This document shows, one piece after another, positions 3,004 through 27,798 of a stretch of DNA of 35,237 bases. Position numbers and translations under genes: made by a program. Under the pieces are notes generated by a model, which did no database searches, was not told where the DNA came from, and saw only the letters and a list, made by a program, of their open reading frames with translations. Origin of the DNA: Bacteroidales bacterium (GTDB lineage Bacteria; Bacteroidota; Bacteroidia; Bacteroidales; JAIORY01); assembly GCA_030630005.1 (NCBI GenBank), contig DAOVNY010000002.1, positions 1 to 35,237 of the forward strand, in the 5' to 3' direction. The first letter of the stretch is position 1. Each line of letters starts with the position of its first letter.

Positions 3004-3038
3004 AACGAAGCGAAGCAAGCGACACGAAGTTAGCCCGT

Positions 3039-3440: not shown

Positions 3441-3502
3441 TTTCATCCTATTGACTTTGATCCCATTTGCAAAATTTAGAAAACAAGCTACTTTTTTGTT
3501 TA

Positions 3503-8550: not shown

Positions 8551-8567
8551 AAGGTAATTTGATAGAC

Positions 8568-8654: not shown

Positions 8655-8687
8655 AATATTGAGATTTATAACAATAGCTGGAATTTT

Positions 8688-8718
8688 ATCATTTAAGCAT
8701 TTAACCATTTACGCATTT
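8688..8718 (-). repeat. Inverted-orientation copy (4 units) of the same 8-nt repeat family
   Basis: The reverse complement reads aaatgcgt aaatggtt aaatgctt aaatgat. Positions 8707-8718 (atttacgcattt) are the exact reverse complement of 8594-8605 (aaatgcgtaaat). Confidence 0.75.
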
Positions 8719-8757
8719 CCACAAAAATAACAGTAAAAACAAAAACTTAATTAATAA

Positions 8758-10209: not shown

Positions 10210-12508
10210 AGTACAAGATAATAACGCAATTAAACACGTTACCGGAGAATCGGTTTATGTGAATGACATCGGTGTAAACGACAGGCTTTTGTACGGAAAG
10301 ATAGTTTACAGTCGTTTGCCTCACGCTATTATCAAATCTTATGACTTGTCGAAAGCACGTTCATTGCAAGGAGTTCATACAGTTTTGTGCAGCAAAGATA
10401 TCACCGGCAAAAATCAGATGGGACCTGTAGTTCAAGACGAACCTTGTCTTGCTGAGAGAGAAGTAAATTTTGCAGGACAAGCAATTTTTCTTATTGCCGC
10501 CGAAAATGAAGAGACCGCAAAAAAAGCTGAAGATCTTATTGAAATAGAATTTGAAGAACTGGAAAGTATTACCGATCTCAAAACTGCCATTCAAAAAGAT
10601 AATCTTCTTTTTGAGCCTCAAAAAATTGAAACAGGCAATGTTAAAAATGCTTTAAAAAACTCAAAACATCATTTATCAGGAAACTTTTTTACAGGAGCAC
10701 AAGAGCATTGGTATCTCGAAACACAGTCGTGTCTTGTCATTCCCGGCGAAGGAAAAGAAATAAAAATATTCAGCTCAACGCAACATCCTTCCGAAACTCA
10801 AAGTATAGTTGCCGGAGTTCTCGGAGTTAATAAAAATGAAGTAGAAGTGGAAGTCAGGCGTCTCGGCGGAGCATTCGGCGGAAAAGAAACCCAGGGAAAC
10901 CATTATGCTGCATGGTCTGCATTGCTTGCAAATGCTACGGATAGTCCGGTAAAAATTCATCTTTCGAGAAATGATGATCAACTGACAACAGGGAAAAGAC
11001 ATCCGTTTTTATCAAATTATATTGTTGGCTTTGATGATAATGGAATTATTAATGCACTTGATGTGGAAATGAATTGTGATGCCGGATCGTCAAATGATCT
11101 TACTTATGCGATTTTGGCAAGAGCTTTATTCCACATAGACAACAGCTATTTTATCCCGAATTTAAAGGTAATCGGAAAAGCTTATAAAACGAACCTGCCT
11201 TCTAACACTGCTTTTCGTGGATTTGGCGGACCACAGGGAATGGCAGTTATAGAAAATATTATCGATAGTATTGCAAGATATCTTCAACTTGATGCAACTG
11301 AGATCAGGTATAGAAATTTCTATCAGATAAATAAAAATAATATCACACATTACGGTCAAAAGATTGAAAACAATCGGCTTTTCAAAATTTATGATGAAAT
11401 AATTGAGTCTTCTAATTATTTTGAAAGACGAAAACAGATCACAGAATTTAATTCAAAAAATGAGTTTTTTAAAAAGGGAATTGCCCTTACTCCCGTTAAA
11501 TTTGGTATCTCTTTTACAACTTCATTTCTGAATCAGGCAGGAGCATTGGTGCATATTTATAAAGATGGCACAGTTCAAGTTAATCACGGCGGAATTGAAA
11601 TGGGTCAGGGATTGAATACCAAAATTTTAGGAATTGCTTCAGATGAATTTGGTATCAATTCCGATGACATTAAAGTTACGTCAACTAATACCTCAAAAGT
11701 GCCGAACACTTCAGCAACAGCAGCATCTTCGGGTAGCGACCTTAATGGGATGGCTGTAAAAAATGCTATTGATAAATTAAAAAAGCGACTTGTTGAAATT
11801 GCATATAAAAGCATTCAGAAAAAAAGTAAAGAAAATAAAATAAGCAAAAAGGACATTATTTTTAAAAATGATTATGTTTTTGATAAAAACTTTAATGATA
11901 TAAAAATTTCCTTTAAGGAATTGATAAACACCTCCTATCTTAATCAGATAAGCCTAAGTGCAACAGGATTTTACAGCACTCCGGGGATTCATTTCGACAA
12001 GAAAAAAGCTAAAGGAAAACCTTTTTATTATTTTGCTTTCGGGATGTCGGTTTCAGAAGTTCAAATTGACACGCTCACGGGAGCACATAAAATTTTAAGA
12101 ACAGATATTTTGCATGATGCCGGAAATCCATTAAACGAAGAAATTGACATTGGACAGATAGAAGGAGGATTTATTCAGGGAGTTGGATGGTGCACCACCG
12201 AAGAGATAAAATGGGATAAAAACGGAAAACTTCTGACTTTTTCACCCGATACCTATAAAATTCCTCTAATTACTGATATCCCAAAAGATTTCAGAGTAAA
12301 ACTATTAAAAGACGCACCAAACATAAATGTAATTAAAAAAAGTAAGGCAGTCGGGGAACCTCCGTTTATGCACTGTTTTTCGGTTTGGCTTGCAATAAAA
12401 GATGCTATTTCTTCAGTTGGAGATCATAAAATTGAACCCGAACTTTCAATTCCGGCTACTAACGAAAAAATTGTGATGGCAGTTGAAAAGGTTAAGGAGG
12501 ATTTATGA
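10202..12508 (+). CDS. xdhB: Xanthine dehydrogenase molybdopterin-binding large subunit
   Basis: 768 aa. GGAFGGKETQ, AFRGFGGPQG and KAVGEPPF carry the Glu/Arg/Glu positions characteristic of xanthine-type hydroxylases. Overlaps xdhA by 8 nt (ATGAATAA). Confidence 0.9.
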   Translation: MNKVQDNNAIKHVTGESVYVNDIGVNDRLLYGKIVYSRLPHAIIKSYDLSKARSLQGVHTVLCSKDITGKNQMGPVVQDEPCLAEREVNFAGQAIFLIAAENEETAKKAEDLIEIEFEELESITDLKTAIQKDNLLFEPQKIETGNVKNALKNSKHHLSGNFFTGAQEHWYLETQSCLVIPGEGKEIKIFSSTQHPSETQSIVAGVLGVNKNEVEVEVRRLGGAFGGKETQGNHYAAWSALLANATDSPVKIHLSRNDDQLTTGKRHPFLSNYIVGFDDNGIINALDVEMNCDAGSSNDLTYAILARALFHIDNSYFIPNLKVIGKAYKTNLPSNTAFRGFGGPQGMAVIENIIDSIARYLQLDATEIRYRNFYQINKNNITHYGQKIENNRLFKIYDEIIESSNYFERRKQITEFNSKNEFFKKGIALTPVKFGISFTTSFLNQAGALVHIYKDGTVQVNHGGIEMGQGLNTKILGIASDEFGINSDDIKVTSTNTSKVPNTSATAASSGSDLNGMAVKNAIDKLKKRLVEIAYKSIQKKSKENKISKKDIIFKNDYVFDKNFNDIKISFKELINTSYLNQISLSATGFYSTPGIHFDKKKAKGKPFYYFAFGMSVSEVQIDTLTGAHKILRTDILHDAGNPLNEEIDIGQIEGGFIQGVGWCTTEEIKWDKNGKLLTFSPDTYKIPLITDIPKDFRVKLLKDAPNINVIKKSKAVGEPPFMHCFSVWLAIKDAISSVGDHKIEPELSIPATNEKIVMAVEKVKEDL

Positions 12509-13248: not shown

Positions 13249-13869
13249 TTAAAAATCAGTGCACCATTTATTCAGTTCCATATACTCTTTTTCAGAATTA
13301 ATATTAACAAGAATTCTTTCATTATCAACTTCAACAATTTTCTTTTCAAATCCTTTCAGGAAATCTCTAAAATTCAAATCATTTTTTTCTTCGGAGATAA
13401 TATTTTTAATAATCTTTTCAGAAAGTAAAATCGGATGCCCGCCTTTGTTTTTGAATACCGGAACAACAAAATTTGATTCAGAAATTTCACAAAACAAACT
13501 ATTGAGAACATTCAAATTTACAAATGGATTATCAACATTATGAATAAATACAGGATGATAATTATTCAAATTTTTCAATCCTAATTTTATTGAATAAAAA
13601 CGTTCCCACTCAAGATGTTGATTGATTACAACTTTAATCTCATCAGATAGTTTAATATTTTTTTGATCTAAAACAGAGACTCCTTCCTTATTCAAAACAA
13701 CAAGAATTTCCTTGCATCCAAAGGCTTTGTATTTATTAATAATTTCTTCAAGAAAAGTAACCTTATCACTAAATTTAAGCGCAAATTTCGGCATTCCCAT
13801 CCTACTCGAATATCCGGCAGCAAGAATAACAACTGAACAAGATTTAATATTTTTCGATCTTTCGTGCAT
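13249..13869 (-). CDS. mocA: MobA-like NTP transferase, likely molybdenum cofactor cytidylyltransferase
   Basis: 206 aa. N-terminal VVILAAGYSSRMGMPKFAL is the MocA/MobA nucleotide-binding motif. It sits divergent to ygfK, as mocA (ygfJ) does in E. coli. Confidence 0.8.
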   Translation of the reverse strand: MHERSKNIKSCSVVILAAGYSSRMGMPKFALKFSDKVTFLEEIINKYKAFGCKEILVVLNKEGVSVLDQKNIKLSDEIKVVINQHLEWERFYSIKLGLKNLNNYHPVFIHNVDNPFVNLNVLNSLFCEISESNFVVPVFKNKGGHPILLSEKIIKNIISEEKNDLNFRDFLKGFEKKIVEVDNERILVNINSEKEYMELNKWCTDF

Positions 13870-13945: not shown

Positions 13946-16900
13946 ATGTCAGATAAATTCTCAATTATACCTCTAAGACAATTATTGCAAATTATTCTCA
14001 GTCAAATAGAAATACATAATAGTTTTTTTGGCATTCAGGAAGAATTGTTTTTCAAACCTAACATTAATGATTCTTTCCGTTTAAATCTTTTCGGACAAAG
14101 TTTGGAAAGCCCGATTGGTGTGGCAGCAGGACCACACAGTCAACTTACTCAAAACATTGTTGCAGCATGGCTTTGCGGAGCCCGTTTTATTGAATTAAAA
14201 ACCATTCAAACACTTGACGAACTGGAAATATCCAAACCTTGTATCGACATGCAGGATGAGGGATATAATTGCGAATGGTCACAGGAATTGAAAATTGAAC
14301 AATCATTCGATCAATATCTTAATGCATGGATCATCATTCACATTTTAAAAGACAAATTAAAAATTGGCAATAAAAATGACGCCGGAGTAATATTTAATAT
14401 GAGCGTAGGATATGATTATGCAGGCATATTAAATAAAAATGTGCAATGGTTTTTTGATAAAATGAATGACTCATCAACAGAGTTAAAACAGAAAATTGAA
14501 GAAATAAAAGACATTTATCCAAACATTGTTAATCTTGATATCAATCCGCAAATTTCAAATAATGTTACTCTTCCGACTATGCACGGCTGTCCGCCGGAAG
14601 AGATTGAACAAATTGGCAATTATCTGATTACAGAAAAAAAATTACATACAGCTATCAAATTAAATCCTACTTTATTAGGAAAAGAAGAACTCCAAAAAAT
14701 TTTACTCAATTCCGGTTTTGAAACAATAGTCCCTGATATTGTTTTTGAGCATGATTTAAAATATAAAGACGCTGTAGGAATCATCAAACGACTTAAACAA
14801 AAAGCCGAAGAAAACAATCTTTATTTCAGTTTAAAACTTACAAACACTCTTGAGAGCCTGAATTATAAAGACATTTTCCCTTCCGGTGAAAAAATGATGT
14901 ATGCCAGTGGCAGAATACTTCATCCAATTTCAATTAATCTCGCAAAAAAGCTACAAAATGAATTTTCAGGGAAACTAAATATTTCATTTTCCGGTGGTGC
15001 CGATGCTTTTAATATTTCAAATATTATTTCATCAGGATTATTTCCAGTTACGGTTTGCACTGATATTTTGAAACCCGGCGGTTATGGAAAACTTAATCAA
15101 TATATTGAAAAACTCCGTTCAGAATTTTCTATAAATAATAATCTTTATGGAAATAATAATCTAAAGAATTTAAATCAATATGCAAACAATGTGTTGGCAG
15201 ACAAGAGGTATAAAAAAATATTGCTCAGGGATAAAAGTATTAAAACAAACAAGCAACTAAATTCTTTCGATTGTATTTCAGCACCATGTGTTGACACCTG
15301 CCCTACAAATCAAAATATTCCGGATTATATGTACCACACAGCAAACGGAGATTTCGAAAAAGCTTTTGATATTATCATGCAAACTAATCCTTTCCCAAAT
15401 ACAACCGGAATGGTTTGCGATCATCTTTGTCAGACAAAATGTACACGAATAAATTATGACAACCCGCTTCAGATAAGAGAAATAAAAAGATTTATTGCTG
15501 AAAATGCAACTAATTCGAAAACAGCTCAGACCAACAATATTAAATCTGAAAAAGCATTTAAAGTTGGAATAATCGGAGCAGGACCATCAGGATTATCTTG
15601 TGCATGGTTTTTGAAAGCAGCAAGATTTGAAGTTGATGTTTATGAAGCAAAACAAAAGCCCGGAGGCATGATTTCAGGAGCAATTCCTTCTTTCAGAATA
15701 ACAGACGAAGCAATTGATATTGACATTGAGAGGATTGAAAAAGCAGGAGTAAAAATTCATTTCGGAGTAAAAATCAATAAAGAAAATTTTGACCGGTTAA
15801 GAAAAAAATGCGACTTTTTATATATTGCAGCCGGAGCTCAAAAAGTTAAAGAAGTATTTATTGAAGGACAAAATGCTGAAGGAGTTTTGAATCCTCTGGA
15901 GTTTTTATTTCAGGTAAAAAAACAAAAATCAATAAAAATCGGACAAAATATTTTAATACTCGGAGGTGGAAACACAGCGATAGACACAGCTCGTACAGCA
16001 AAACGCTTAGTTAGTAAAAACGGTAATGTTCAAATAATTTACCGCCGAACATTAAAACAAATGCCCGCCGATTACAATGAAATAATTTCAGTTTTAGATG
16101 AAGGAGTAAAAATTATGGAATTGGTTTCTCCGGTAAAAATCAACTCAAAGAATGGTAAAATAATTTCTCTTACTTGTGTAAAAATGAAACTTGGTGATAA
16201 AGATGAAAGTGGAAGGGCAACGCCTGTAATTATACCAAATTCAGAATTTGAAATTGAAGCTGATACAATAATTCCGGCTTTTGGACAGGATATTGATATT
16301 GATTTCATCGACCACGAACTTCTCACACCAAAAGCTGAAAGCTACGAAACTCAAATATCAAATATATTTATAGGTGGTGATGCTTTGCGAGGTGGATCAA
16401 CTGTAATTAATGCTGTTGCAGATGGAAGAAAAACAGCAAATGAAATTATTGAGAAAACTGAAATTGATATTCAATATAATAAAATCATCAATAAAAAAGA
16501 CATCTCTATAAAAGAGCTTATGCTAAAGAAAAGTAAAATTATAATATCTGAATCTTCACATAATTCTCCTGAAATTGATTCCATTAGTTTTATTAATACC
16601 TCAAAATCATTAACAAAAGAACAGGCAGTAAAAGAAGCATCAAGATGTTTACTTTGTGATGAAGTTTGTAATATTTGCACAACGGTTTGCCCGAATCTTG
16701 CACTTTTTGCTTTTGAGACTGAAACTGTAAAATATCATCTTCAAAAAATAAAAGCTAATAATAAAAACATCGAAATTGTAGAAGATGAGTTATTTGAAGT
16801 AAATCAGAAACATCAAATTCTTCACCTTGCCGACTGGTGTAATGAGTGTGGAAATTGCACAACTTTTTGCCCGACATCAGGTTCACCTTATAAAGAAAAA

Positions 16901-17215
16901 CCTCATTTGTACTTTAACTACAGTTCCTTTGAACCGGCTGATGAAGGATATTATTTTGATAATTCAGAAAAAGAAATAATTCTATTAAACAAAACAAAAG
17001 AGCAAATATCAAGTTTGACAAAAGGCGATAATTATTATATTTATCAAATTGATAAATATAAGATAAAATTAGATTTAAAAACTCTAAGAATTATCAATCA
17101 TAATATTGAAGAAAAAGATAACTTTGAAATCAAATTAACAAAAGCTGCTGAGATGAGTGTAATAATGCAGGGAACATCGCAACTTATAATAAATGAAAGT
17201 TCTACTATGAATTAA
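13946..17215 (+). CDS. ygfK: YgfK-type multidomain Fe-S/FAD oxidoreductase (DHOD/DPD-like barrel, GltD-like NAD(P)/FAD domain, ferredoxin clusters)
   Basis: Collinear with E. coli YgfK as I remember it: IGVAAGPHSQLTQNIVAAWLCGARFIELKTIQ, MHGCPPEEIE, LKPGGYGKL, CDHLCQ..CTR, VGIIGAGPSGLSCA, NTAIDTAR, CNECGNCTTFCP. Start set at the ATG at 13946; the ORF-track start at 13712 overlaps mocA. Confidence 0.9.
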   Translation: MSDKFSIIPLRQLLQIILSQIEIHNSFFGIQEELFFKPNINDSFRLNLFGQSLESPIGVAAGPHSQLTQNIVAAWLCGARFIELKTIQTLDELEISKPCIDMQDEGYNCEWSQELKIEQSFDQYLNAWIIIHILKDKLKIGNKNDAGVIFNMSVGYDYAGILNKNVQWFFDKMNDSSTELKQKIEEIKDIYPNIVNLDINPQISNNVTLPTMHGCPPEEIEQIGNYLITEKKLHTAIKLNPTLLGKEELQKILLNSGFETIVPDIVFEHDLKYKDAVGIIKRLKQKAEENNLYFSLKLTNTLESLNYKDIFPSGEKMMYASGRILHPISINLAKKLQNEFSGKLNISFSGGADAFNISNIISSGLFPVTVCTDILKPGGYGKLNQYIEKLRSEFSINNNLYGNNNLKNLNQYANNVLADKRYKKILLRDKSIKTNKQLNSFDCISAPCVDTCPTNQNIPDYMYHTANGDFEKAFDIIMQTNPFPNTTGMVCDHLCQTKCTRINYDNPLQIREIKRFIAENATNSKTAQTNNIKSEKAFKVGIIGAGPSGLSCAWFLKAARFEVDVYEAKQKPGGMISGAIPSFRITDEAIDIDIERIEKAGVKIHFGVKINKENFDRLRKKCDFLYIAAGAQKVKEVFIEGQNAEGVLNPLEFLFQVKKQKSIKIGQNILILGGGNTAIDTARTAKRLVSKNGNVQIIYRRTLKQMPADYNEIISVLDEGVKIMELVSPVKINSKNGKIISLTCVKMKLGDKDESGRATPVIIPNSEFEIEADTIIPAFGQDIDIDFIDHELLTPKAESYETQISNIFIGGDALRGGSTVINAVADGRKTANEIIEKTEIDIQYNKIINKKDISIKELMLKKSKIIISESSHNSPEIDSISFINTSKSLTKEQAVKEASRCLLCDEVCNICTTVCPNLALFAFETETVKYHLQKIKANNKNIEIVEDELFEVNQKHQILHLADWCNECGNCTTFCPTSGSPYKEKPHLYFNYSSFEPADEGYYFDNSEKEIILLNKTKEQISSLTKGDNYYIYQIDKYKIKLDLKTLRIINHNIEEKDNFEIKLTKAAEMSVIMQGTSQLIINESSTMN

Positions 17216-17288: not shown

Positions 17289-18758
17289 ATGAAAAACAAA
17301 GAAAAAGTATTAGAAAACACGATTAAGAGATGTAGAGAACGACATATTATTCTTCCCACATATAAACAAATGAGAAATCCTGAATTGATTCCGGAAAAGA
17401 TCAATGAAAAACTAAAAAACATAGGTTTATGGGATCTGAATTCACTCAATTTATTTAGAATTACGTGGAAAAATGAGCCACAAAAATTCGGTGGTGGCTT
17501 TGGAGATGTTAACTTTTTGGAATTGCCACCGGAATTAACCGGAGTAAAAGCCAGAATAATAATGCTTGTTGGAAAGTTTTTTCCCACCGGAGCACACAAA
17601 GTAGGTGCTACTTTTGGACCACTTGTTGAAAAATTAATTTCCGGCAGCTTTGACCCGACACAACAAAAAGCTTTATGGCCATCAACCGGAAATTATTGTC
17701 GCGGTGGTGCTTATGATTCATACCTTCTTGGCTGCGATTCAATAGCAGTTTTGCCCGAAGGAATGTCGAAAGAAAGATTTGACTGGTTGCATAAAGTAGG
17801 AGCAGAAGTTTTTGCCACCCCGGGAACCGAAAGTAATGTAAAAGAAATTTACGATAAAGTTAAAGAACTCCTTGCTCAGCGGGGAGATGAAATTGTAAAT
17901 CTTAATCAATTTGATGAAATCGGAAATACTCTTTGGCATTACGCTGTAACCGGACCTGCTATAGAAGAAGTTTTTAATTCTGTAAAGAATAAAGACAATA
18001 GATTTTCGGCATTATTTTTAACTCAAGGTTCAGCAGGAACGCTTGGTAGTGCAGATTATTTAAGAAAATTGCATCCTGAATTCAAAGTCTGTGCAGGCGA
18101 AGCTCTTCAATGCCCTACCCTACTACAAAACGGTTTTGGCGAACATCGCATCGAAGGTATCGGCGATAAACACGTTCCTTGGATTCATAATATTAAAAAT
18201 ATGGATATGGTTGCCGGAATTGACGACAATCCGAATATGCGAATTATGCGATTATTTAATGAAGAAGCAGGGAAAGAATTTCTCAAAAAGGAAATCAAAA
18301 TTAATCCTGAATTAGTTGATAAACTTGATCTTCTTGGTATTTCTTCGATTGCAAATCTTATGGGCTCAATTAAAATGGCTAAATATTATGAAATGGATGA
18401 AAATGATGTTATTTTTACTGTAGCTACAGATTCTATGGAATTGTATCAATCAAGATTGGCAGAAGAAAAAGAAAAGCATGGAAATTTTGATAACAGATCA
18501 GCAGCCGTTAGCTTTGATGCCGACCTGATGAAAATCAATATCGACAACATTATCGAAATGAATTATTATGAAAAGAAACGCATGCATAATCTTAAATACT
18601 TTACATGGATCGAGCAACAAGGCAAAACAGTTGAAGAATTAAATGCTCAGTGGTATGATAATAATTATTGGAAATCGCATTATGCAAAAGTTGATGAATG
18701 GGATGAAAAAATAAATGAGTTTAATGAAAGAACGGGCTTGTTGAAGGAATATAAATAA
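17289..18758 (+). CDS. Fold-type-II (Trp-synthase-beta-like) PLP-dependent enzyme, long form, specificity unknown
   Basis: 489 aa. Candidate PLP-lysine segment FFPTGAHKVGATFG, a glycine-rich phosphate loop TQGSAGTLGS, and PALP-like layout with N- and C-terminal extensions. Confidence 0.7.
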   Translation: MKNKEKVLENTIKRCRERHIILPTYKQMRNPELIPEKINEKLKNIGLWDLNSLNLFRITWKNEPQKFGGGFGDVNFLELPPELTGVKARIIMLVGKFFPTGAHKVGATFGPLVEKLISGSFDPTQQKALWPSTGNYCRGGAYDSYLLGCDSIAVLPEGMSKERFDWLHKVGAEVFATPGTESNVKEIYDKVKELLAQRGDEIVNLNQFDEIGNTLWHYAVTGPAIEEVFNSVKNKDNRFSALFLTQGSAGTLGSADYLRKLHPEFKVCAGEALQCPTLLQNGFGEHRIEGIGDKHVPWIHNIKNMDMVAGIDDNPNMRIMRLFNEEAGKEFLKKEIKINPELVDKLDLLGISSIANLMGSIKMAKYYEMDENDVIFTVATDSMELYQSRLAEEKEKHGNFDNRSAAVSFDADLMKINIDNIIEMNYYEKKRMHNLKYFTWIEQQGKTVEELNAQWYDNNYWKSHYAKVDEWDEKINEFNERTGLLKEYK

Positions 18759-18828
18759 AGTTAGTAATTAAGATCAAAACATTAGAAACAAATTGAATAT
18801 CGAATAATGATTTGAGATTTAATAAATA

Positions 18829-20064
18829 ATGAGAAAACCTGAACATCATTTTCAATGTATCAACTGCGGAAATCATTTCAACAAAGATGAGGTAAAATAT
18901 TTATGCCCTGATTGTAGTGAAAATAATTCATCTGCTTCTCCTCCAAAAGGAGTTTTAAAAACCATTTATGATTATGAAAATCTTAAAAAAGAAATTTCAG
19001 GATTTGTTCAATTAAAACAAAATAATTTTATTGATATTTTACCAATAAAAAATAGTAAAAACCTCCCAAATTTGCGTATTGGCAACACTCCTTTGTATTC
19101 AATAAAAAACATAGATGATTCAAAATTACCTTTTAATCTTTTCCTGAAAGATGATTCTCAAAATCCTACTTTCTCATTCAAAGACAGGGCTTCTGCGATT
19201 GTTTCGGCTTATGCAAAAGAAAATGGATTTAAAACAATTGTTACCGCTTCAACCGGAAATGCCGGATCTTCATTGGCAGGTATTTGTGCATCGCAAGGAC
19301 AAAAAGCTGTTATTATTGTTCCTGAGAAAGCACCTGCCGCTAAGCTCACTCAAATAATTATGTATGGTGCCAAAATTATTCCCGTTAAGGGAAATTATGA
19401 CGATGCTTTTGATTTGAGTATTGAGGCAACAAAAGAGTTTGGATGGTACAATCGCAACACAGCTTTCAACCCTTTCACTATAGAAGGGAAAAAAACCGTT
19501 TCCTTCGAACTATATGAGCAATTGAATTTTACTGTTCCCGATAATATTTTTGTCCCTGTGGGTGATGGCGTGATAATTTCCGGTATTTATAAAGGTTTTG
19601 AAGATCTGTTAAAACTCAATATCATCAAAAAAATGCCATGCATTATTGCTGTTCAATCCAATGAAAGCGATAATTTGATTAGAAACATCAACAAACAAAA
19701 ATTCATCAGCAAAAGCAGTTCAACTATTGCCGATTCGATTTCTGTTGATATTCCAAGGAATTTTTATATGACTCAACATTTTATTAAAACTTATGATGGG
19801 AAATGTTTATCTGTTTCGGATGATGAGATAATAAAAGCCTCTTCAATATTATCTAAAAACACAGGTCTTTTTGCCGAACCTGCTGCTGCCGCTGCTTTTG
19901 CAGGATTATTATCATATTCAAAAAATCATCAAATATCTGAAAGTTCAAATAATGTTGTATTGCTTACCGGAAGCGGTCTTAAAGATTTGAATTCTGTTAA
20001 AAAAATAATTAATATTCCTGATGCGATTGCACCATCAATCAAGGAATTGAAAAAACTTTTCTAA
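18829..20064 (+). CDS. Threonine-synthase-like PLP enzyme with N-terminal zinc ribbon
   Basis: 411 aa. CINCGNHF...CPDCS ribbon, PLP-lysine motif NPTFSFKDRAS, STGNAGSSLA, and GSGLKD near the C-terminus. This is the short ThrC-family architecture. Confidence 0.8.
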   Translation: MRKPEHHFQCINCGNHFNKDEVKYLCPDCSENNSSASPPKGVLKTIYDYENLKKEISGFVQLKQNNFIDILPIKNSKNLPNLRIGNTPLYSIKNIDDSKLPFNLFLKDDSQNPTFSFKDRASAIVSAYAKENGFKTIVTASTGNAGSSLAGICASQGQKAVIIVPEKAPAAKLTQIIMYGAKIIPVKGNYDDAFDLSIEATKEFGWYNRNTAFNPFTIEGKKTVSFELYEQLNFTVPDNIFVPVGDGVIISGIYKGFEDLLKLNIIKKMPCIIAVQSNESDNLIRNINKQKFISKSSSTIADSISVDIPRNFYMTQHFIKTYDGKCLSVSDDEIIKASSILSKNTGLFAEPAAAAAFAGLLSYSKNHQISESSNNVVLLTGSGLKDLNSVKKIINIPDAIAPSIKELKKLF

Positions 20065-22625
20065 TGATAACATTTATCTTAAACGGAATAAAAAAATCCT
20101 ACTCAGGCAATCCTGATAAAACACTTCTGGATTATCTGAGAAACGATCAGAAAATCACTTCTGTAAAAGACGGATGTTCCGGTGAGGGAGTTTGCGGTGC
20201 TTGTACGGTTGAGATAAATGGAAAAGCAAAATTATCCTGTGTTACAAAAATGAGAAAACTTGAAGGTGCGGAAATTCTTACCCCCGAAGGTTTTCCTGAA
20301 TATGTGAAAGACACCATAGCAAAAGCCTTTGTTAACAAGGGAGCTGTGCAGTGTGGTTTTTGCACACCGGGATTTATCAGCCGCACAAAAGTACTTTTAC
20401 AAAACAATCCAAATCCATCAATTGAAGAAATTCAAAAAGCTATTAAACCACATCTTTGTCGATGTACCGGATATAAAAAAATTGAAGACGCAATAGAATT
20501 TGCAGCTGAAGCATTGCATAAAAATAAAAAACTCGAAATCACCAAAACATCAGGAAAGGTTGGTGTTTCACATCCAAAATATCAGGCTTATCAAACTGCA
20601 ATTGGCAAACGCAATTTTGTTGATGATATCAGCTTTGACGGAATGTTGCATTCAGCCTTAAAATTTAGCAATTATCCAAAAGCAAAAGTCCTGAAGATAA
20701 ATACAGAAAAAGCAAAAAAACTTTCCGGCGTACATAAAGTATTTACAGCAAAAGATATTCCAGGAGAAAAGAAAGTGGGTTTAATTTTGCAAGATTGGTC
20801 GGTGATGATAGCTGAGGGAAATATCACTCATTATATTGGCGATGTGATTGCCGGAGTTGTAGCCGACACAATTGAAATTGCCCGTAAAGCCGTTGAATTA
20901 ATTGAAGTTGTATATGAAGTTTTAAAGCCGGAAACCGATGTTTTCAAGGCTATTGACGGAGAACGAGTTCATCCCGAAAGACCAAATAATTTTAATACCA
21001 GCCAGTTTACTATTGGTGATGTTGATGAAATTTTTGCAAAATCTAAATATATCTCATCCGGAAAATTCGAGACACAGCGAGTAGAGCATGGATTTCTGGA
21101 AAAAGAATCTGCCATTGCACGCCCTGATGGAAAAGGAGGAATAGAGCTTTTTAGTCAAAGTCAGGGAGTTTATGAAGACCGCCGGCAGGTGGCAATGATA
21201 CTCGGTTTGCCCGAAGAAAAAGTGAGAGTAACACTGGTACCAAATGGCGGAGGATTTGGTGGAAAAGAGGATTTAAGTATTCAGGGTCATGTTTCTTTGT
21301 TTGCTTTTTTACTAAACAAACCGGTTAAATTAACGCTTTCGCGAAGCGAATCTATCAAGCTTCATCCCAAACGACATCCTGTTTTTATGGATATGAAAGT
21401 TGCTGCTGATGAAAACGGAAAACTGACTGCATTGAAATTACGTGCAGTTGGCGATACAGGAGCTTATGCTTCTGTCGGCGATAAAGTTCTTGAGCGTGTT
21501 GCAGGACATGCTGCCGGAGGATATTTTATTCCGGCTATTGATATTGAAGCAAAAACTGTTTATACAAATAATATTCCTTGCGGTGCTATGCGTGGGTTTG
21601 GAGCCAATCAGGTTACTTATGCGCTGGAAGTTTGCCTTGATGATATTTGCAAGAAAGCCGGATTCGACCGTTGGCAATTTCGTTATGATAATGCACTTGT
21701 GGATGGATTGCGGACTTCAACCGGACAAAAAGTTAATGGTGTTGGAATACGAGCTTGTCTCGAAGCTGTTAAAGAAGATTTCAATAATGCAAAGTATGCA
21801 GGAATAGCTTGTGGTATCAAAAATTCAGGTGTTGGAAACGGGATGATTGATGAGTCAAAAGTGAAAATTAAAATTGTTTCTGAAAATAAAATAGTTCTTT
21901 CACACGGCTGGACTGAAATGGGACAAGGTGTTCATAATATGGCTCTGCAAGTTCTTTGTCAGGAAACCGGAATCAATCCTGAAATTATTGAAGTTATTGT
22001 TGATACCGAAGACCAGATAAAAACAGGAATGACCACTTCATCGCGGGCGACAGCTTTGGTGGGTCTTGCAATAATTAATGCTGCAAAATCTTTAAAAGAA
22101 GATTTAAAAACTAAATTTTTGAATCAGTTAAGCGGAAAAACTTATCAGGGTGAGTTTGTTTGCGACTGGACAAGCAAACCAGGAGCTGATGTCAAAGACC
22201 CTGTAATTCATTATTCTTATGGTTATGCCGCACAAGTTTGTATTTTAGATGATAATGGAAATATTGAAAAAATTATTGCAGCTCATGATGCCGGAAAAAT
22301 TATGAATCCTATGCTTTTTGAAGGACAAATTCAGGGAGCTGTTCACATGGGATTAGGCTACGCCCTGACTGAAGACCTGCCAATGAAAGACGGATATTTG
22401 CTAAGTGATAAATATCGTGATTTGGGAATTTTACGAGCATACCAAACTCCGGAAATAATTGTAAAAGGCGTGGAAGTAAAAGACCCTGTTGGTCCTTATG
22501 GAGCAAAAGGTATTGGCGAAATCGGACTGGTTCCCACAGCAGGAGCTATTGCAAACGCCCTATGTAAATTCGATGGAAAACAGAGACTTAAACTTCCGAT
22601 GAAGAGGAAGAAAAAAAGAAAATAA
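20064..22625 (+). CDS. [2Fe-2S]-fused molybdopterin hydroxylase of the XdhD / selenium-dependent molybdenum hydroxylase type
   Basis: 853 aa. N-terminal GCSGEGVCGACT, QCGFCTPG and CRCTGY. Moco domain has GGGFGGKEDLS, AMRGFGANQV and KGIGEIGLVP. No FAD domain. The start codon shares 1 nt with the upstream stop (TAATG). Confidence 0.85.
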   Translation: MITFILNGIKKSYSGNPDKTLLDYLRNDQKITSVKDGCSGEGVCGACTVEINGKAKLSCVTKMRKLEGAEILTPEGFPEYVKDTIAKAFVNKGAVQCGFCTPGFISRTKVLLQNNPNPSIEEIQKAIKPHLCRCTGYKKIEDAIEFAAEALHKNKKLEITKTSGKVGVSHPKYQAYQTAIGKRNFVDDISFDGMLHSALKFSNYPKAKVLKINTEKAKKLSGVHKVFTAKDIPGEKKVGLILQDWSVMIAEGNITHYIGDVIAGVVADTIEIARKAVELIEVVYEVLKPETDVFKAIDGERVHPERPNNFNTSQFTIGDVDEIFAKSKYISSGKFETQRVEHGFLEKESAIARPDGKGGIELFSQSQGVYEDRRQVAMILGLPEEKVRVTLVPNGGGFGGKEDLSIQGHVSLFAFLLNKPVKLTLSRSESIKLHPKRHPVFMDMKVAADENGKLTALKLRAVGDTGAYASVGDKVLERVAGHAAGGYFIPAIDIEAKTVYTNNIPCGAMRGFGANQVTYALEVCLDDICKKAGFDRWQFRYDNALVDGLRTSTGQKVNGVGIRACLEAVKEDFNNAKYAGIACGIKNSGVGNGMIDESKVKIKIVSENKIVLSHGWTEMGQGVHNMALQVLCQETGINPEIIEVIVDTEDQIKTGMTTSSRATALVGLAIINAAKSLKEDLKTKFLNQLSGKTYQGEFVCDWTSKPGADVKDPVIHYSYGYAAQVCILDDNGNIEKIIAAHDAGKIMNPMLFEGQIQGAVHMGLGYALTEDLPMKDGYLLSDKYRDLGILRAYQTPEIIVKGVEVKDPVGPYGAKGIGEIGLVPTAGAIANALCKFDGKQRLKLPMKRKKKRK

Positions 22626-22627
22626 TT

Positions 22628-23908
22628 ATGTCAATACTCTTAAAAAACGCAACATACATAAATTGGGAAAATCTCCAATTCTCAAAAACCAATATTCTTG
22701 TTGAAGAAGGAGAAAATGGGAGTGTGAAATTTCTTGATAGTCTTGAAGGTATAAATCCCAATAGTAAAATAATTGACTGCACAGGAAAATTTGTAACAAA
22801 ATCCTTTGCTGTCGGGCATCATCATGTTTACTCAGCACTTTCGAGAGGAATGCCGACTCCAAAGAAAAGCCCAAACAATTTTTATGAAATATTAAAAAAT
22901 ATCTGGTGGACACTTGACAAAACTCTGGATAAAGACATGATAGAAGCAAGCGCATTAGCTACCGCAATAGCTTGTGCAAAAGCCGGATCTACCTTTGTAA
23001 TTGATCATCACGCATCACCAAATTTTATTACCGGCTCTCTTGATATAATTGCCAAAGCTTTTGAAAAAGTCGGGATAAATCATTTGCTGTGTTATGAAAT
23101 TACAGACAGAGATGGAATTGAAAAGGCAGAATTGGGTCTTTCCGAAACAGAAAATTATTTAAAGCAAAATCAGGGTCTTATTGGCTTACATGCTTCTTTT
23201 ACGGTTGGTGAAAATACTTTAAGAAAAGCATCCGACCTTATGAATAAATACAATTCCGGAATTCACATTCATGTTGCGGAAGACAATTATGACCAAGAAC
23301 ATTGTATAAAAAATTACAACAAACGGGTTGTTGAAAGATTAAACGATTATGGTATTCTTAATTCATCAAAAACAATTCTTGGACACTGTTTGAAAATCAA
23401 TAAAAATGAACGGAATTTGATTAAAAACTCAAAAGCATTTATTGTTCAAAATACAGAAAGCAATCTTAATAATAATGTCGGTTATTTTAATTCGGAAGGA
23501 TTAGGAAAAAATATTATGCTCGGAACTGACGGTATGCACAGCGACATGATACGAAGTGCTCAAGCTGCATATTTCGTAGGACAGGGATTTGATAAAATTG
23601 ATTTCCAGTCTTCTTATGAGAGATTCAGAAATGTTCATAATTATCTAAAAACAAATAACTTTAAGGGTGATGGCAAAAACAATCTTGTCGTTTTTGATTA
23701 TGATAGTCCAACTGAAATGAATGAAAATAATTTTCTTGGTCATTTTATTTTCGGATTAAATTCAAAATATATTCAACATGTTATTTCAAATGGAAAATTA
23801 ATTGTGAAAGACGGAAAAATTAAAACTGTTAATGAAAAAGAAATTTTAGATTTTTCAAAAGAAATAGCAAATAGGCTTTGGGATAGAATGCAATCGAATA
23901 AACCTTAA
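22628..23908 (+). CDS. ssnA: SsnA-family amidohydrolase
   Basis: 426 aa. GHHHVYSALSRGM, NIWWTLDKTLD, FVIDHHASPNFITGSLD, HIHVAEDNYD and GTDGMHSDM run collinear with E. coli SsnA as I remember it. It starts 2 nt after the upstream stop. Confidence 0.9.
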   Translation: MSILLKNATYINWENLQFSKTNILVEEGENGSVKFLDSLEGINPNSKIIDCTGKFVTKSFAVGHHHVYSALSRGMPTPKKSPNNFYEILKNIWWTLDKTLDKDMIEASALATAIACAKAGSTFVIDHHASPNFITGSLDIIAKAFEKVGINHLLCYEITDRDGIEKAELGLSETENYLKQNQGLIGLHASFTVGENTLRKASDLMNKYNSGIHIHVAEDNYDQEHCIKNYNKRVVERLNDYGILNSSKTILGHCLKINKNERNLIKNSKAFIVQNTESNLNNNVGYFNSEGLGKNIMLGTDGMHSDMIRSAQAAYFVGQGFDKIDFQSSYERFRNVHNYLKTNNFKGDGKNNLVVFDYDSPTEMNENNFLGHFIFGLNSKYIQHVISNGKLIVKDGKIKTVNEKEILDFSKEIANRLWDRMQSNKP

Positions 23909-24014: not shown

Positions 24015-25385
24015 ATGAACATTTTAATCAAAAACGGTACAATTATAACATCAGAAAAAACATTTAAATCTGATATCCTTATCGGGAATGGGAAAATACT
24101 CAAGATCAGTAATCATCTCAAATCAAACAATACAATTGATAAAGAAATTAATGCTGAAGGAAATTATATTTTTCCCGGTGGTATTGATCCTCACGTTCAT
24201 ATGCATTTACCAACTCCTGCGGGATTTTCTTCAGATGATTTTTTGTCGGGTAGCAAAGCTGCTCTATTTGGTGGAACAACAACAATGATTGACTTTGTTA
24301 CTCCCCGAAAAGATCAATCCCTGATTGATGCCTTAAATGAAAGAAAAAAGGAAGCATTGAATTCAATTATTGATTATTCTTTTCATGTAAGTCCCGTGGA
24401 ATGGACAAAAACAAGCGAGCAAGAAATCAAATCCATAATTCAGGATGAAGGTATAAATTCTTTTAAAATATACATGGCTTATAAAAATACTATTGGTCTT
24501 GATGATGAAGATATTTTGAAAGTTATGAAAGTTGTTGGGAAAGCAGGAGGAATAGTTACTTCACATTGTGAATTGGGTGATGATATTGAAAAACTTAGGA
24601 ACTCCTTTGCGGAAAATGGAAATCTTAGTCCTGAATTTCATCCAAAATCACGTTCTCCTGAAATGGAATTTAAAGCTGTAAAAAAAGCAATTGAGCTTGC
24701 AAAAATTGCTGACTGTCCGCTTTACATTGTTCATGTTTCTGCAAAAGAATCATTAAAGTATATCAAAAAAGCACAACAAGAAGGACAAAAAGTTTTCGCC
24801 GAAACTTGTCCTCATTATTTATTATTAAATGATTTGAAATACAAAGGTGGGTTTCATAAAACTGCTCCTTTTGTTCTTAGTCCACCTTTGCGAAAGCAAG
24901 AAGACAATGAAGCACTTTGGGAGGCGATAATTGATGGAACAATTCAAACTATCGGAACTGATCATTGTCCATTTATGCTTAAACAAAAAGAGTTTGGAAT
25001 TAATGATTTTCGAAAAATTCCAAATGGTGCTGGAGGTATTGAACACAGGCTTGCACTAATTTACACTTTTGGTGTTCTTGAAAACAAAATCATATTAAAT
25101 CGTTTTGTTGACATAATTTCTACACAAGCAGCAAAAATATTTGGACTTTATCCTGCTAAAGGTGAAATCGCTGAAAACTCAGATGCAGATTTGATAATTT
25201 GGGATACTGAAAAAGAAAATATTATTTCAGCAAAAACTCATCATCAAAATTGTGATACTAATATTTTTGAAAATATTAAAACAAAAGGTGCTGTAAAACA
25301 TCTCATTAAAAATGGTGAAATTGTAATTCTGGATGGTGAATTATTGTCTGAAAAAATTAAAGGGAATTTTCTGAAAAGAAGCTAA
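24015..25385 (+). CDS. hyuA: Dihydropyrimidinase / D-hydantoinase-family cyclic amidohydrolase
   Basis: 456 aa. PGGIDPHVHM metal-binding motif, FKIYMAYK (carboxylated-Lys region), VTSHCE, IVHVS, GTDHCPF. Confidence 0.85.
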   Translation: MNILIKNGTIITSEKTFKSDILIGNGKILKISNHLKSNNTIDKEINAEGNYIFPGGIDPHVHMHLPTPAGFSSDDFLSGSKAALFGGTTTMIDFVTPRKDQSLIDALNERKKEALNSIIDYSFHVSPVEWTKTSEQEIKSIIQDEGINSFKIYMAYKNTIGLDDEDILKVMKVVGKAGGIVTSHCELGDDIEKLRNSFAENGNLSPEFHPKSRSPEMEFKAVKKAIELAKIADCPLYIVHVSAKESLKYIKKAQQEGQKVFAETCPHYLLLNDLKYKGGFHKTAPFVLSPPLRKQEDNEALWEAIIDGTIQTIGTDHCPFMLKQKEFGINDFRKIPNGAGGIEHRLALIYTFGVLENKIILNRFVDIISTQAAKIFGLYPAKGEIAENSDADLIIWDTEKENIISAKTHHQNCDTNIFENIKTKGAVKHLIKNGEIVILDGELLSEKIKGNFLKRS

Positions 25386-25402: not shown

Positions 25403-26590
25403 TCAAACCCCTGCCCTTTTCAAATTCCTATCTAAAATATTTCTTAAAATCTTAGAAGGATATTTGAATTTATTTGTAAACATCATAGCAGCAATTATGT
25501 ATGGTTTGAATCCGGCTTCGTGATAAGTTTTAATTCTGTATTTTTCAAAAACATCAGCATTTACCTCGCCTTCTTTGCACGAAACACCCGAAATATCAGC
25601 AGGAAGACAGTGCATATAAAGAGCATTTTTGTTTTTTGTAAGATTCATTTTTTCTTCATCATACTCCCAATCTTTGTGTTTTGCATTTTCGGCAAGGCAT
25701 GATTTTTCAAGATTATCAAGACCGGTTTTATCATTTGCTTTTAATAAATCCGTTCGTTTTTGCATAATATGAAATGGTGCCCAACTTTTGGGATAAACAA
25801 TGTCTGCATCCTTGACTGCCTCCTTCATTGAATGACTGATATTAAATGAGCCTCTACTATTTTTTGCGTTGTTACGGGCAATATCAACAATTTCAGGAAT
25901 AAGGTCATATCCTTTTGGGTAAGCTAATTCGATGTTTATTCCAAAACGTGACATCAGAGCAATAATTCCCTGAGGAACAGACAATGGTTTTCCATAACTT
26001 GGCGAGTATGCCCAGCTTATAACGATCTTTTTATCTTTCAGATTTTCGAGTGAGCCAAAATATTTTTTCAAATGTAAAAGATCAGCCATTGATTGGGTGG
26101 GATGATCCATGTCACATTGAAGATTTACAATTCCCGGGCGGGATGGCAATACATTATTTTCATAACCCTCGTCAAGAGCATCAGCCACTTCACGCATATA
26201 TTTATTTCCTTCGCCAAGAAACATATCATCACGAATTCCAATAAAATCAGTTAAAAATGAAATCATATTTGCAGTCTCTCTGACTGTTTCGCCATGAGCA
26301 ATCTGAGATTTTTCCTCATCCATATCCTGAACTTCCAAACCTAATAAATTGCTTGCCGAAGCATAAGAAAATCTTGTCCTTGTTGATTTATCTCTAAAGA
26401 TAGAAACTGCCAACCCGGAATCAAAAACTTTTGAAGATATGTTTTGCTCTCTCAGTTGTTTCAGAATATCAGCCACTTCCAGAATCATCAGTAAATCGCT
26501 TTCACTTTTTTCCCAGCTTAAGAGAAAATCTTTTTTATACAGATTTGACTTTATCTGTTGTAACTTTTCAATTTTATTTTTGAGATCCAT
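25403..26590 (-). CDS. ygeW: YgeW-type (knotted) carbamoyltransferase
   Basis: 395 aa. SIFRDKSTRTRFSYASA, KSQIAHGETVRETANMISF, NLQCDMDHPTQSMADL, WAYSPSYGKPLSVPQGII and YMHCLPADISGVSCKEGEV match E. coli YgeW, as I recall it, almost block for block. Confidence 0.92.
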   Translation of the reverse strand: MDLKNKIEKLQQIKSNLYKKDFLLSWEKSESDLLMILEVADILKQLREQNISSKVFDSGLAVSIFRDKSTRTRFSYASASNLLGLEVQDMDEEKSQIAHGETVRETANMISFLTDFIGIRDDMFLGEGNKYMREVADALDEGYENNVLPSRPGIVNLQCDMDHPTQSMADLLHLKKYFGSLENLKDKKIVISWAYSPSYGKPLSVPQGIIALMSRFGINIELAYPKGYDLIPEIVDIARNNAKNSRGSFNISHSMKEAVKDADIVYPKSWAPFHIMQKRTDLLKANDKTGLDNLEKSCLAENAKHKDWEYDEEKMNLTKNKNALYMHCLPADISGVSCKEGEVNADVFEKYRIKTYHEAGFKPYIIAAMMFTNKFKYPSKILRNILDRNLKRAGV

Positions 26591-26601
26591 AATTTTTCGA
26601 T

Positions 26602-27798
26602 TTAAAATTCATCCATTTCATACGCAAAAGCAGCATAAAAAGCAGATGCAACAACCAAATCATCAATAAGAACTTTTTCGTTTGGTGCATGTGCCAGCAC
26701 TTCATTTCCCGGACCAAAACCAATTGTTGGAATACCATAAATTCCATTAATTGTTACTCCGTTTGTCGAGAAAGTCCATTTATCAATTTTTGCATTTCTT
26801 TGATAAAGATTTTGATATGCCTTAACTCCGGTTTGAACAATTTTATGATCTTCGGGAATTTTCCATGTAGGATAATATTTTTCCATTCCGTACTCCAGCC
26901 CTGTGTATGCTTTTTCCGAATAGTTAAGAACTTTAACTTCGGCTTTAATATCCTTAATCAATTCCTCAATTTCCTTAACAGCAGATTCTTTCGTTTCTCC
27001 CCACGTCAATCTACGATCAAGATGAATTCTGGCAAAATCCGAGACAGCACATAAAGAAGGACTTCCTGAAATAATTTCGGAAATAGTAATACTTCCCTTT
27101 CCAAGGAATTCATTATATTGAAGATGTTCATTTAATTTTTCGATTTCAAGAGCCACACGAGAAGCCATATAAATAGCATTTTCGCCTCGCTCGGGTGCAG
27201 AGCCATGTGAAGAAACTCCATAAAAACTTACCTGCATTTCCATTCTACCACGATGTCCGCGATAAATATTCAAATTTGTTGGTTCTGTACTAATTACAAA
27301 ATCAGGCTTAATTCCATCTTCTTCAATAATATATTTCCAGCATAGCCCGTCACAATCTTCTTCCATCACGCTACCTACAAAATATATTGTCATATCTTTA
27401 TCAAATCCGAGTTCTTTCAAAATTTTACCCGATGTTACAAATGATGCAGGTCCGCCTTTCTGATCAACAGAGCCTCTTCCATGAACAAATCCATTTTTAA
27501 TTTCACCTCCCAAGGGATTAAAATCCCAATTCTTAATATTTCCAATATCAACAGTATCCATGTGACCGTCAATTGCAAGGTTTTTTTTACCATTTCCTAT
27601 TCTGCCAATCACATTTCCAAGCCCGTCAATCTTAACTTCATCAAATCCAGCATCTTCCATCTGTTGCTTCAATTCCATTTGGACAAGTTTTTCATCCTTA
27701 CTTAAAGATTTTATTTTAATGAGTTTTGACAGATTTTCAGCCGTATAATCTCTATACTTCTCCGATAACTCATTTATCTTACTAATAACACTTTTCAT
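26602..27798 (-). CDS. ygeY: YgeY-type M20 family metallohydrolase
   Basis: 398 aa. GNIKNWDFNP, HGRGSVDQKGG, EEDCDGLCWKYIIEE, STEPT, HGSAPERGENAI, DRRLTWGET, KWTFSTNG and GFGPG...AHAPNE are collinear with E. coli YgeY as I remember it. Confidence 0.92.
   Translation of the reverse strand: MKSVISKINELSEKYRDYTAENLSKLIKIKSLSKDEKLVQMELKQQMEDAGFDEVKIDGLGNVIGRIGNGKKNLAIDGHMDTVDIGNIKNWDFNPLGGEIKNGFVHGRGSVDQKGGPASFVTSGKILKELGFDKDMTIYFVGSVMEEDCDGLCWKYIIEEDGIKPDFVISTEPTNLNIYRGHRGRMEMQVSFYGVSSHGSAPERGENAIYMASRVALEIEKLNEHLQYNEFLGKGSITISEIISGSPSLCAVSDFARIHLDRRLTWGETKESAVKEIEELIKDIKAEVKVLNYSEKAYTGLEYGMEKYYPTWKIPEDHKIVQTGVKAYQNLYQRNAKIDKWTFSTNGVTINGIYGIPTIGFGPGNEVLAHAPNEKVLIDDLVVASAFYAAFAYEMDEF

Follow-up and report, generated by a model that had tools for sequence, protein, structure and literature searches.

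A conserved pair of fold-type-II PLP enzymes in a Bacteroidales reductive uric-acid gene cluster: a possible stand-in for YgeX and a possible ninth pathway enzyme

Results

Two PLP enzyme genes lie within a uric-acid gene cluster

We analysed a stretch of 35,237 nucleotides (hereafter the window) from a Bacteroidales bacterium (contig DAOVNY010000002.1 of assembly GCA_030630005.1, positions 1 to 35,237, forward strand). Two neighbouring genes in it, which encode fold-type-II pyridoxal phosphate (PLP) enzymes, are embedded among genes of purine catabolism. The first product has 489 amino acids and belongs to the cysteine synthase (CysK) superfamily, the second has 411 amino acids and resembles threonine synthase (ThrC), and they are termed PLP489 and ThrCL here. 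The genes of the cluster are as follows.

13946..17215, + strand: ygfK, 2,8-dioxopurine reductase (TIGR03315, 950 bits; cut-off 835)
17289..18758, + strand: PLP489, 489-amino-acid PLP enzyme of an uncharacterised CysK-superfamily clade
18829..20064, + strand: ThrCL, 411-amino-acid ThrC-derived PLP enzyme with an N-terminal Cys4 zinc ribbon
20064..22625, + strand: xdhD-type fused 2Fe-2S/molybdopterin hydroxylase (TIGR03311, selenium-dependent xanthine dehydrogenase (XDH), 887.6 bits; cut-off 830)
22628..23908, + strand: ssnA-like amidohydrolase (best NCBIfam match SsnA, 392 bits, under the 444-bit cut-off)
24015..25385, + strand: hyuA-type D-hydantoinase/dihydropyrimidinase (TIGR02033, 531 bits, above cut-off)
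25403..26590, - strand: ygeW, knotted carbamoyltransferase (680 bits, above cut-off)
26602..27798, - strand: ygeY, M20 hydrolase (538 bits, above cut-off)

The start of ygfK follows the gene call for contig L002, which is near-identical; the mechanical open reading frame (ORF) starts at 13712. XdhD, YgfK, an SsnA-like protein, HyuA, YgeW and YgeY are thus all clustered in the window, with SsnA alone falling under its cut-off. When the window proteins were searched with profiles, neither a homologue of YgeX, the diaminopropionate ammonia-lyase, nor the carbamate kinase YqeA was found in the 35 kb. The short gaps from ygfK to hyuA contain no terminator-like site, which fits one transcription unit, a promoter and terminator scan being uninformative for a Bacteroidales genome. 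The TAA stop codon of ThrCL (20062-20064) shares one base with the ATG of xdhD (TAATG), and ThrCL is translationally coupled to xdhD. A preliminary description of this DNA had reported the coordinates and lengths of the two genes, their lysine motifs (PTGAHKVGA and NPTFSFKDRAS), the Cys4 ribbon and the TAATG overlap, all of which hold; its view of the locus as a purine cluster of the ygfK/ssnA type without YgeX is borne out by the profile matches.

The reductive uric-acid pathway was elucidated in 2025 in Escherichia coli and Clostridium, and comprises eight enzymes of which YgeX is the last (bioRxiv 10.1101/2025.05.19.654654; bioRxiv 10.1101/2025.04.24.650524). Urate is converted to 2,8-dioxopurine by XdhD and then reduced by YgfK, SsnA and HyuA open both rings to give 2,3-diureidopropionate, YgeW and YgeY strip the ureido groups to leave 2,3-diaminopropionate, and YgeX turns this into pyruvate and ammonia (bioRxiv 10.1101/2025.05.19.654654; bioRxiv 10.1101/2025.04.24.650524; PMC12990295). 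YgeX was identified as the diaminopropionate lyase by experiment, and ygeX mutants accumulate diaminopropionate (uric-acid pathway literature). The xdhD-type hydroxylase at 20064..22625 is presumed to be the reductase that acts from urate to 2,8-dioxopurine. We conclude that the window carries a reductive uric-acid (2,8-dioxopurine) cluster in a Bacteroidales form that lacks ygeX. ThrC-like or CysK-like PLP genes are mentioned neither in the two pathway papers nor in a commentary on them nor in a preprint on Prevotella uricolysis.

Both PLP genes are linked to the pathway across phyla

About 270 loci were gathered using as seeds PLP489, ThrCL, a YgeX homologue and a 463-amino-acid member of the PLP489 subfamily (PLP463), and were annotated by tblastn with the pathway proteins of the window and of E. 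coli; individual loci are cited by number (L001 and so on). Co-occurrence was counted in the 85 loci seeded with PLP489-type proteins (PLP4xx) that have at least 4 kb on both flanks, and immediate neighbours were counted in 160 seeded loci. The nearest relatives of the window are Bacteroidales metagenome-assembled genomes (MAGs), and in one of these (L084) the two PLP proteins are 96% and 91% identical to those studied here.

The order ygfK-PLP489-ThrCL-xdhD-ssnA recurs across many Bacteroidota genomes, which argues that the arrangement is not a matter of chance. The preliminary description had made its reading depend on conserved linkage in other genomes, and we found the linkage of both PLP genes to the pathway to hold in more than 10 phyla. 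In Cloacimonadota, Anaerolineae, Thermoanaerobacterales, Acidobacteriota, Verrucomicrobiota and others, members of the PLP489 family lie amid genes for YgeW-like or ornithine carbamoyltransferase (OTC)-like carbamoyltransferases, carbamate kinase, YgeY, SsnA, HyuA and XDH subunits, the reductase of these loci being either YgfK or of the UacX type (DHO_dh plus Fer4). A lyase partner was present in 45 of the 85 loci, a carbamoyltransferase in 33, SsnA in 29, YgeY in 28 and XDH in 27. The lyase partner was also the commonest immediate neighbour of PLP489 (41 of 160 loci; ThrCL in 34 and YgeX in 7), followed by YgfK (16), carbamoyltransferase (12), YgeY (12) and carbamate kinase (8), and all 34 adjacent ThrCL genes were on the same strand as PLP489. 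Clusters of the gut type (E. coli, C. difficile, Oscillospiraceae and Synergistaceae) do not contain PLP489.

Some variation was seen in the genes for ureido-group removal. YgeW forms carbamoyl phosphate and is present in the window, although carbamate kinase is absent within the 35 kb; in Cloacimonadota and Elusimicrobia a carbamate kinase gene lies directly beside PLP489 or ThrCL. Loci L024, L067, L075 and L210 each carry two OTC-like carbamoyltransferases, with carbamate kinase in three of them, and within the stretch retrieved YgeY was not detected; phosphorolysis might then apply to both ureido groups and give two ATP per urate.

ThrCL alternates with YgeX and departs from threonine synthases at five positions

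ThrCL matches the Pfam PALP domain (239 bits, residues 83-381), and its PLP lysine is Lys118 in NPTFSFKDRAS. The CxxC...CxxC ribbon is formed by C10, C13, C26 and C29, which are invariant in the sequence alignment. The AlphaFold2 (AF2) model has a predicted local distance difference test score (pLDDT) of 86.5 and its best fold matches are threonine synthases at 27-33% identity. Like PLP489, the protein is small and soluble-looking. Public records name it "threonine synthase"; it scored 232.8 bits against PRK08197, the zinc-ribbon ThrC model, under the cut-off of 303, and the genes around it include ygfK and xdhD but no hom or thrB.

We compared about 55 ThrCL orthologues from the first loci and about ten partner ThrCLs from other phyla with four solved threonine synthases, those of Thermus thermophilus (1UIM/1V7C), Bacillus subtilis (6CGQ), Mycobacterium tuberculosis (2D1F) and Aquifex aeolicus (2ZSJ). 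Thr88, Asn154, Ser155, Arg160 and Asn188 (T. thermophilus numbering), which we take to be the residues that hold the phosphate of O-phosphohomoserine in the T. thermophilus enzyme, are invariant in the four structures. At these positions ThrCL of the window has Ala145, Thr211, Ala212, Thr217 and Asp246, and the orthologues have Ala, Thr/Cys/Ser, Ala/Gly, Thr/Leu/Met and Asp, respectively, the change from Asn188 to Asp being invariant among ThrCLs. The same pattern, STGNA, no Arg and VGDG, was seen in every ThrCL partner examined, across phyla.

These data bear on whether the two enzymes are simply a housekeeping threonine synthase and a housekeeping cysteine synthase that have come to lie in the operon by chance. 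Their public names ('threonine synthase' and 'cysteine synthase A'), the score of ThrCL above the TIGR00260 cut-off and the housekeeping neighbours at about half of the PLP489 loci would favour this. Against it stand the conservation of linkage across phyla, the systematic loss in ThrCL of the presumed phosphate-site residues, the coupling of ThrCL to xdhD and the score of PLP489 against the cysK model, 96 bits where the cut-off is 350.95. We find a housekeeping role for the pair scarcely credible, in keeping with the preliminary description, which had doubted it for both genes. We conclude that ThrCL is, on its sequence and setting, a neofunctionalised ThrC and probably not a threonine synthase.

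The distribution of ThrCL points to YgeX. Among the 85 PLP4xx-seeded loci, ThrCL was present in 41 and YgeX in 4, and the two never occurred together. The gene immediately before xdhD is ThrCL in 24 loci, in 10 of which the two abut or overlap, and YgeX in 11; other Bacteroidales have PLP489-YgeX-xdhD (L132, L135-138, L141, L142 and L145) where the window has PLP489-ThrCL-xdhD. The YgeX homologues in these loci are 36-56% identical to E. coli YgeX and keep the TDGNH motif, which belongs to the Lys77/Asp120 two-base system and reads STGNA in ThrCL. ThrCL scored 65.8 bits against the diaminopropionate ammonia-lyase (DAPAL) model for YgeX (NF006058 / TIGR01747), under the cut-off of 276. Since YgeY is kept beside ThrCL, it is YgeX and not YgeY that ThrCL would replace. 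From the equivalence of the operon slot and the changes in the active site, ThrCL most likely deaminates 2,3-diaminopropionate.

PLP489 defines an uncharacterised clade of the CysK superfamily

PLP489 matches Pfam PALP (57.5 bits, residues 99-325). PTGAHKVGA corresponds to residues 99-107, and in alignments to cystathionine beta-synthase (CBS) and CysK the PLP lysine falls at Lys104. A CysK-like core of about residues 80-390 is preceded by about 80 and followed by about 100 residues; the long terminal extensions pointed out in the preliminary description are indeed conserved, and near-invariant residues are found in both. Motifs of the core include the Asn loop S132-T-G-N-Y136, Q207, G247-S-A-G-T251, G290-I-G-D293-K294-H295 and G350-I-S352. 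In an alignment of 184 distinct homologues (40-100% identity), 89 positions are at least 97% conserved, among them H103-K104-V105-G106-A107 and the CysK catalytic set (K104, S132-N135, Q207, G247-T251 and S352).

Homologues of PLP489 number in the thousands. Among the best 120 (81-100% identity) the only names given are "pyridoxal-phosphate dependent enzyme" and "cysteine synthase A". The family is compact, with 297 representatives at E <= 1e-30 among 1.84 billion proteins, and an informative name is found for none of its members or of its distant relatives (30-36% identity). Besides the low score of PLP489 itself, distant family members also scored weakly against the cysK models (TIGR01139 / TIGR01136). 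Among known structures, those closest to PLP489 are CysK, CBS and beta-substituted alanine synthases (20-26% identity). The preliminary description had suggested a comparison with OrtB-type thiolases; OrtB, the beta subunit of 2-amino-4-ketopentanoate thiolase, would go with a small OrtA subunit gene next to it, and no small OrtA-like ORF was found in the gaps flanking PLP489 (73 bp upstream and 70 bp downstream). The upstream gap, between ygfK and PLP489, is mostly occupied by an 8-bp tandem repeat, AATGATTG, with 5.8 copies at 17214-17259 (8.4 copies in degenerate form, up to 17280); the corresponding gap in L084 is only about 24 bp, so the repeat is not conserved.

The specificity loop of PLP489 reads HRIEGIGDKH, with GIGDKH in place of the GIGAGF of CysK. 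This loop resembles HRIEGISDEF of Fn1055 from Fusobacterium nucleatum, an enzyme that forms L-serine and H2S from L-cysteine and water and in which Asp232 is critical (PMC12940168; PMC9865163). The invariant Asp293 of PLP489 aligns with Asp232, the site having been located by comparing the wild-type structure (5b53) with the D232N mutant (5b55).

PLP489 accompanies different lyases

The preliminary description had assigned both PLP enzymes to the position of YgeX. For ThrCL this stands, given the alternation described above (41, 4 and no shared loci), but PLP489 occurs together with genuine YgeX in at least 17 loci, and is therefore an additional function and not a substitute for YgeX. An example from Delongbacteria (L130) carries ygeY, a ygeW-like gene, ygfK, YgeX, xdhD, ssnA, PLP489 and hyuA, and further cases are L116, L114, L157, L151 and L064. 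In Clostridium algoriphilum and Oceanirhabdus, genes for UacX, SsnA-like and HyuA-like proteins, a carbamoyltransferase, YgeY and YgeX are divergent from PLP463, and a Wukongibacter (Clostridia) operon without purine genes encodes a sigma54 regulator, YgeX, RidA, a transporter and PLP463. A third ThrC-like type of partner occurs in Deltaproteobacteria with a tripartite ATP-independent periplasmic (TRAP) transporter, PLP463, YgeY and YgeW. This third type is a PALP protein of roughly 490 amino acids with the motifs SHKGR, SCGNA and VGGGALA (L223, L226, L227, L228 and L269). A relative of PLP489 with 30% identity is likewise paired with a ThrC-like PALP gene.

A potential explanation for so tight a pairing (41 immediate adjacencies) is that the two enzymes replace YgeX jointly, PLP489 racemising D-diaminopropionate or albizziin arising by the D-hydantoinase route and ThrCL deaminating the L-form, or each acting as a lyase specific for one enantiomer. 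The pathway intermediates have been proposed to be R (D) configured, their stereochemistry being acknowledged as an open question (PMC12990295), to which a racemase would provide an answer. Also in favour are the alanine racemase gene that adjoins PLP489 in L076 and the absence from ThrCL of Asp120, the second base that lets YgeX use both enantiomers. However, PLP489 also accompanies true YgeX homologues that retain TDGNH and Asp120, which weakens a racemase role, and E. coli YgeX is reported to act equally well on the two isomers. Moreover, we know of no racemase within the CysK subfamily, and PLP489 has Thr, not Ser, at what is presumably the position of the re-face base of serine racemase. 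We regard joint replacement of YgeX as unlikely.

The constancy of PLP489, which is far more conserved than its repeatedly replaced partner, raises the question of whether PLP489 is itself the diaminopropionate or albizziin lyase, the variable partner handling a secondary substrate such as D- or L-serine. In some Cloacimonadota clusters (L025, L030 and L031) PLP489 is present and a partner is absent within 10 kb, and RidA is adjacent in two loci. Yet where the whole MAG was followed (L018 and L119) the partner was found on another contig, the E. coli and Clostridium clusters work without PLP489, and the lyase activity of YgeX on diaminopropionate is experimentally established. This assignment of the lyase step to PLP489 appears distinctly unlikely to us.

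The likeness to Fn1055 also allows a role away from the purine intermediates, with PLP489 as a cysteine or selenocysteine (hydroxyl) lyase whose product, sulfide or selenide, would be used in maturing the molybdenum hydroxylases. The equivalent of Asp232, the residue governing cysteine specificity in Fn1055, is present, the hydroxylases of the pathway are selenium-dependent, PLP489 is occasionally found beside xdhC or mocA (L030, L225, L242 and L257), and in several lineages EamA-type transporters (L042, L145 and L201) and a PLP gene of Cys/Met metabolism are nearby. Nevertheless, the strongest associations of PLP489 are with the lyase, YgeW and YgeY and not with XDH or maturation genes, and loci exist that contain the lower module only, without XDH (L178, L193, L197 and L223). 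SelD was found near PLP4xx in 1 and YqeC in 3 of about 270 loci, and YqeB also almost never; because of this near absence we down-weight supply of sulfur or selenium, and consider it highly improbable.

At roughly half of the PLP489 loci no pathway gene lies within 8 kb. The genes around these loci are a mixed set: glycosyltransferases, ClpXP, NusA, rubrerythrin, EamA, alanine racemase, RidA, serine hydroxymethyltransferase (SHMT) and D-2-hydroxyacid dehydrogenase. RidA adjoins a PLP489-family gene in L042 and L178, SHMT in L071, L195 and L196, and D-2-hydroxyacid dehydrogenase in L019 and L021. These neighbourhoods give hints of serine, pyruvate and enamine chemistry, without a consistent partner. 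Together with the Fn1055-like motif, the RidA, SHMT, alanine racemase and D-2-hydroxyacid dehydrogenase neighbours suggest beta-elimination or beta-replacement around serine, pyruvate and aminoacrylate.

Discussion

We propose that the conserved pair of fold-type-II PLP enzymes serves the lower, C3-amino-acid segment of the pathway, with ThrCL as a non-orthologous replacement of YgeX and PLP489 as a ninth pathway enzyme that does not substitute for YgeX; taken as a whole, we give this proposal an even chance of being right. ThrCL would no longer have the site at which threonine synthase holds the phosphate of O-phosphohomoserine, an invariant Asp having arisen there, and would act by alpha,beta-elimination of ammonia on the 2,3-diaminopropionate that YgeW and YgeY produce, giving pyruvate and ammonia. 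PLP489 would accompany YgeW, YgeY and whatever lyase the cluster has, be it YgeX, ThrCL or the third ThrC-like type. It should need a substrate with a free alpha-amino group, which in this pathway means albizziin or diaminopropionate. The complete CysK-type apparatus and the HRIEGIxD motif with the catalytic Asp of Fn1055 lead us to suggest chemistry at the beta-substituent, and PLP489 may exchange or eliminate this group of a beta-substituted alanine, at the level of albizziin or diaminopropionate, to form serine or aminoacrylate.

Several observations weigh against this proposal. ThrCL exceeds the cut-off of the TIGR00260 thrC model (196.7 against 167.1 bits), and the phosphate-holding role of the five ThrC residues is our assumption. 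ThrCL does not have the Asp120 motif of YgeX, so a two-base mechanism acting on D- and L-diaminopropionate is not evident. With regard to PLP489, eight E. coli enzymes reconstitute the pathway without a PLP489-like protein, and a chemical step is thus not obviously vacant; the many PLP489 loci without pathway neighbours leave room for a broader role; identity to Fn1055 is about 21%; and the AF2 model is poor (pLDDT 66.8, with active-site loops of low confidence) because the alignment was shallow (81-97% identity), so that fold-level matches alone were used.

A more specific version for PLP489 would make it a new reaction class in the CysK superfamily, a hydrolytic beta-replacement of diaminopropionate or albizziin to serine by an Fn1055-like '(hydroxyl) lyase'. 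We think this rather unlikely. If true, the route to serine would open a serine, glycine and C1 branch, which fits the adjoining SHMT genes, and would give environmental anaerobes a further source of reducing power or biosynthetic units in uric acid, beside the pyruvate branch of the lyase partner. On this view the conserved terminal extensions of PLP489 might hold it in a physical complex with that partner.

The pathway itself is already known. What our proposal would add is that its terminal lyase has been displaced non-orthologously by a mis-annotated ThrC derivative, and that a further enzyme family, the ninth and a highly conserved one, makes a "PLP pair" with the lyase of whatever type the cluster has. 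The data suggest that a ThrC-derived enzyme annotated as "threonine synthase" performs the last step in many environmental anaerobes, including Bacteroidales, Cloacimonadota, Aminicenantes, Anaerolineae, Thermoanaerobacterales and Elusimicrobia. If so, surveys that use YgeX as a marker would miss such clusters, and threonine biosynthesis calls in these genomes would be suspect. The data also suggest that one of the most conserved proteins of the clusters, a ninth enzyme, has been overlooked. The questions of stereochemistry and of the order in which the ureido groups are cleaved may be bound up with it.

Other features of the window

Upstream of ygfK the window (about 31% G+C, which is low) contains the following genes.

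7789-8550, + strand: xdhC-like maturation factor (part of the 7789..12508 block)
8758-10209, + strand: xdhA, conventional two-subunit XDH
10202-12508, + strand: xdhB, conventional two-subunit XDH
12611-13147: small nucleoside triphosphatase (NTPase) of 178 amino acids, NTPase_1 (PF03266), between xdhB and mocA
13249..13869, - strand: mocA/ygfJ-like molybdenum cofactor cytidylyltransferase

XdhA and XdhB both exceed the TIGR02963/TIGR02965 cut-offs. The conventional XDH and the xdhC-like factor (7789-12508) thus lie just upstream of the xdhD-type enzyme, and the locus could therefore run from xanthine or hypoxanthine to urate and then reduce the urate. The 178-amino-acid NTPase_1 protein (12611-13147) is also kept in L084 and L086 and, as YqeC is absent here, may be an analogous maturation NTPase. 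Several Bacteroidota clusters have a conserved protein of 206 amino acids without a Pfam match between ssnA and hyuA (16809-17429 in L001; also L006, L063 and L065), which is absent from the window; L001 additionally carries a gene of the Asp/Glu/hydantoin racemase family.

Past the cluster, at a distance of 1.1 kb, comes the dnaA gene (28894-30333). Near 25 kb the cumulative GC skew reaches its peak and the genes change orientation; the chromosomal origin may be close. Three ORFs at 757-4738 (748, 133 and 411 amino acids) have no NCBIfam match at E <= 1e-10.

Comparison with known systems

ThrCL and YgeX are both fold-type-II PLP enzymes of about 400 amino acids and are found, mutually exclusively, in the same operon slot upstream of xdhD and near PLP489, ygeY and ygeW. 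They differ in subfamily, ThrCL being ThrC-derived with a Cys4 zinc ribbon and without TDGNH/Asp120. With the class I threonine synthases (1UIM/1V7C, 6CGQ, 2D1F and 2ZSJ) ThrCL shares 27-33% identity, a template modelling (TM) score of about 0.8, the SFKDR lysine motif and the STGN loop. Unlike in these enzymes, the loop that binds the PLP phosphate is GDG(V/C/N)I in place of GNAGN, and the gene is found in a purine-catabolic operon instead of a hom/thrB context.

PLP489 shares with Fn1055 (PDB 5B53/5B55) the CysK fold and the HRIEGI(S/G)D motif in which Asp293 corresponds to the catalytic Asp232, but is set apart from it by the conserved terminal extensions, the HKVGA lysine motif, the invariant K294-H295 and its genomic context. 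Its best PDB and NCBIfam matches are CysK/CysM, CBS and the beta-substituted alanine synthases (DcsD and SbnA included), and the Asn loop, the Gln, the glycine loop and the serine to the pyridine nitrogen of CysK/CysM and CBS are all retained. In contrast to CysK, CysM and CBS, PLP489 is about 170 residues longer, has distinct residues in the specificity loop, scores far under the family cut-offs, and is linked to YgeX or ThrCL, YgeY and YgeW and not to cysE or other sulfur-assimilation genes.

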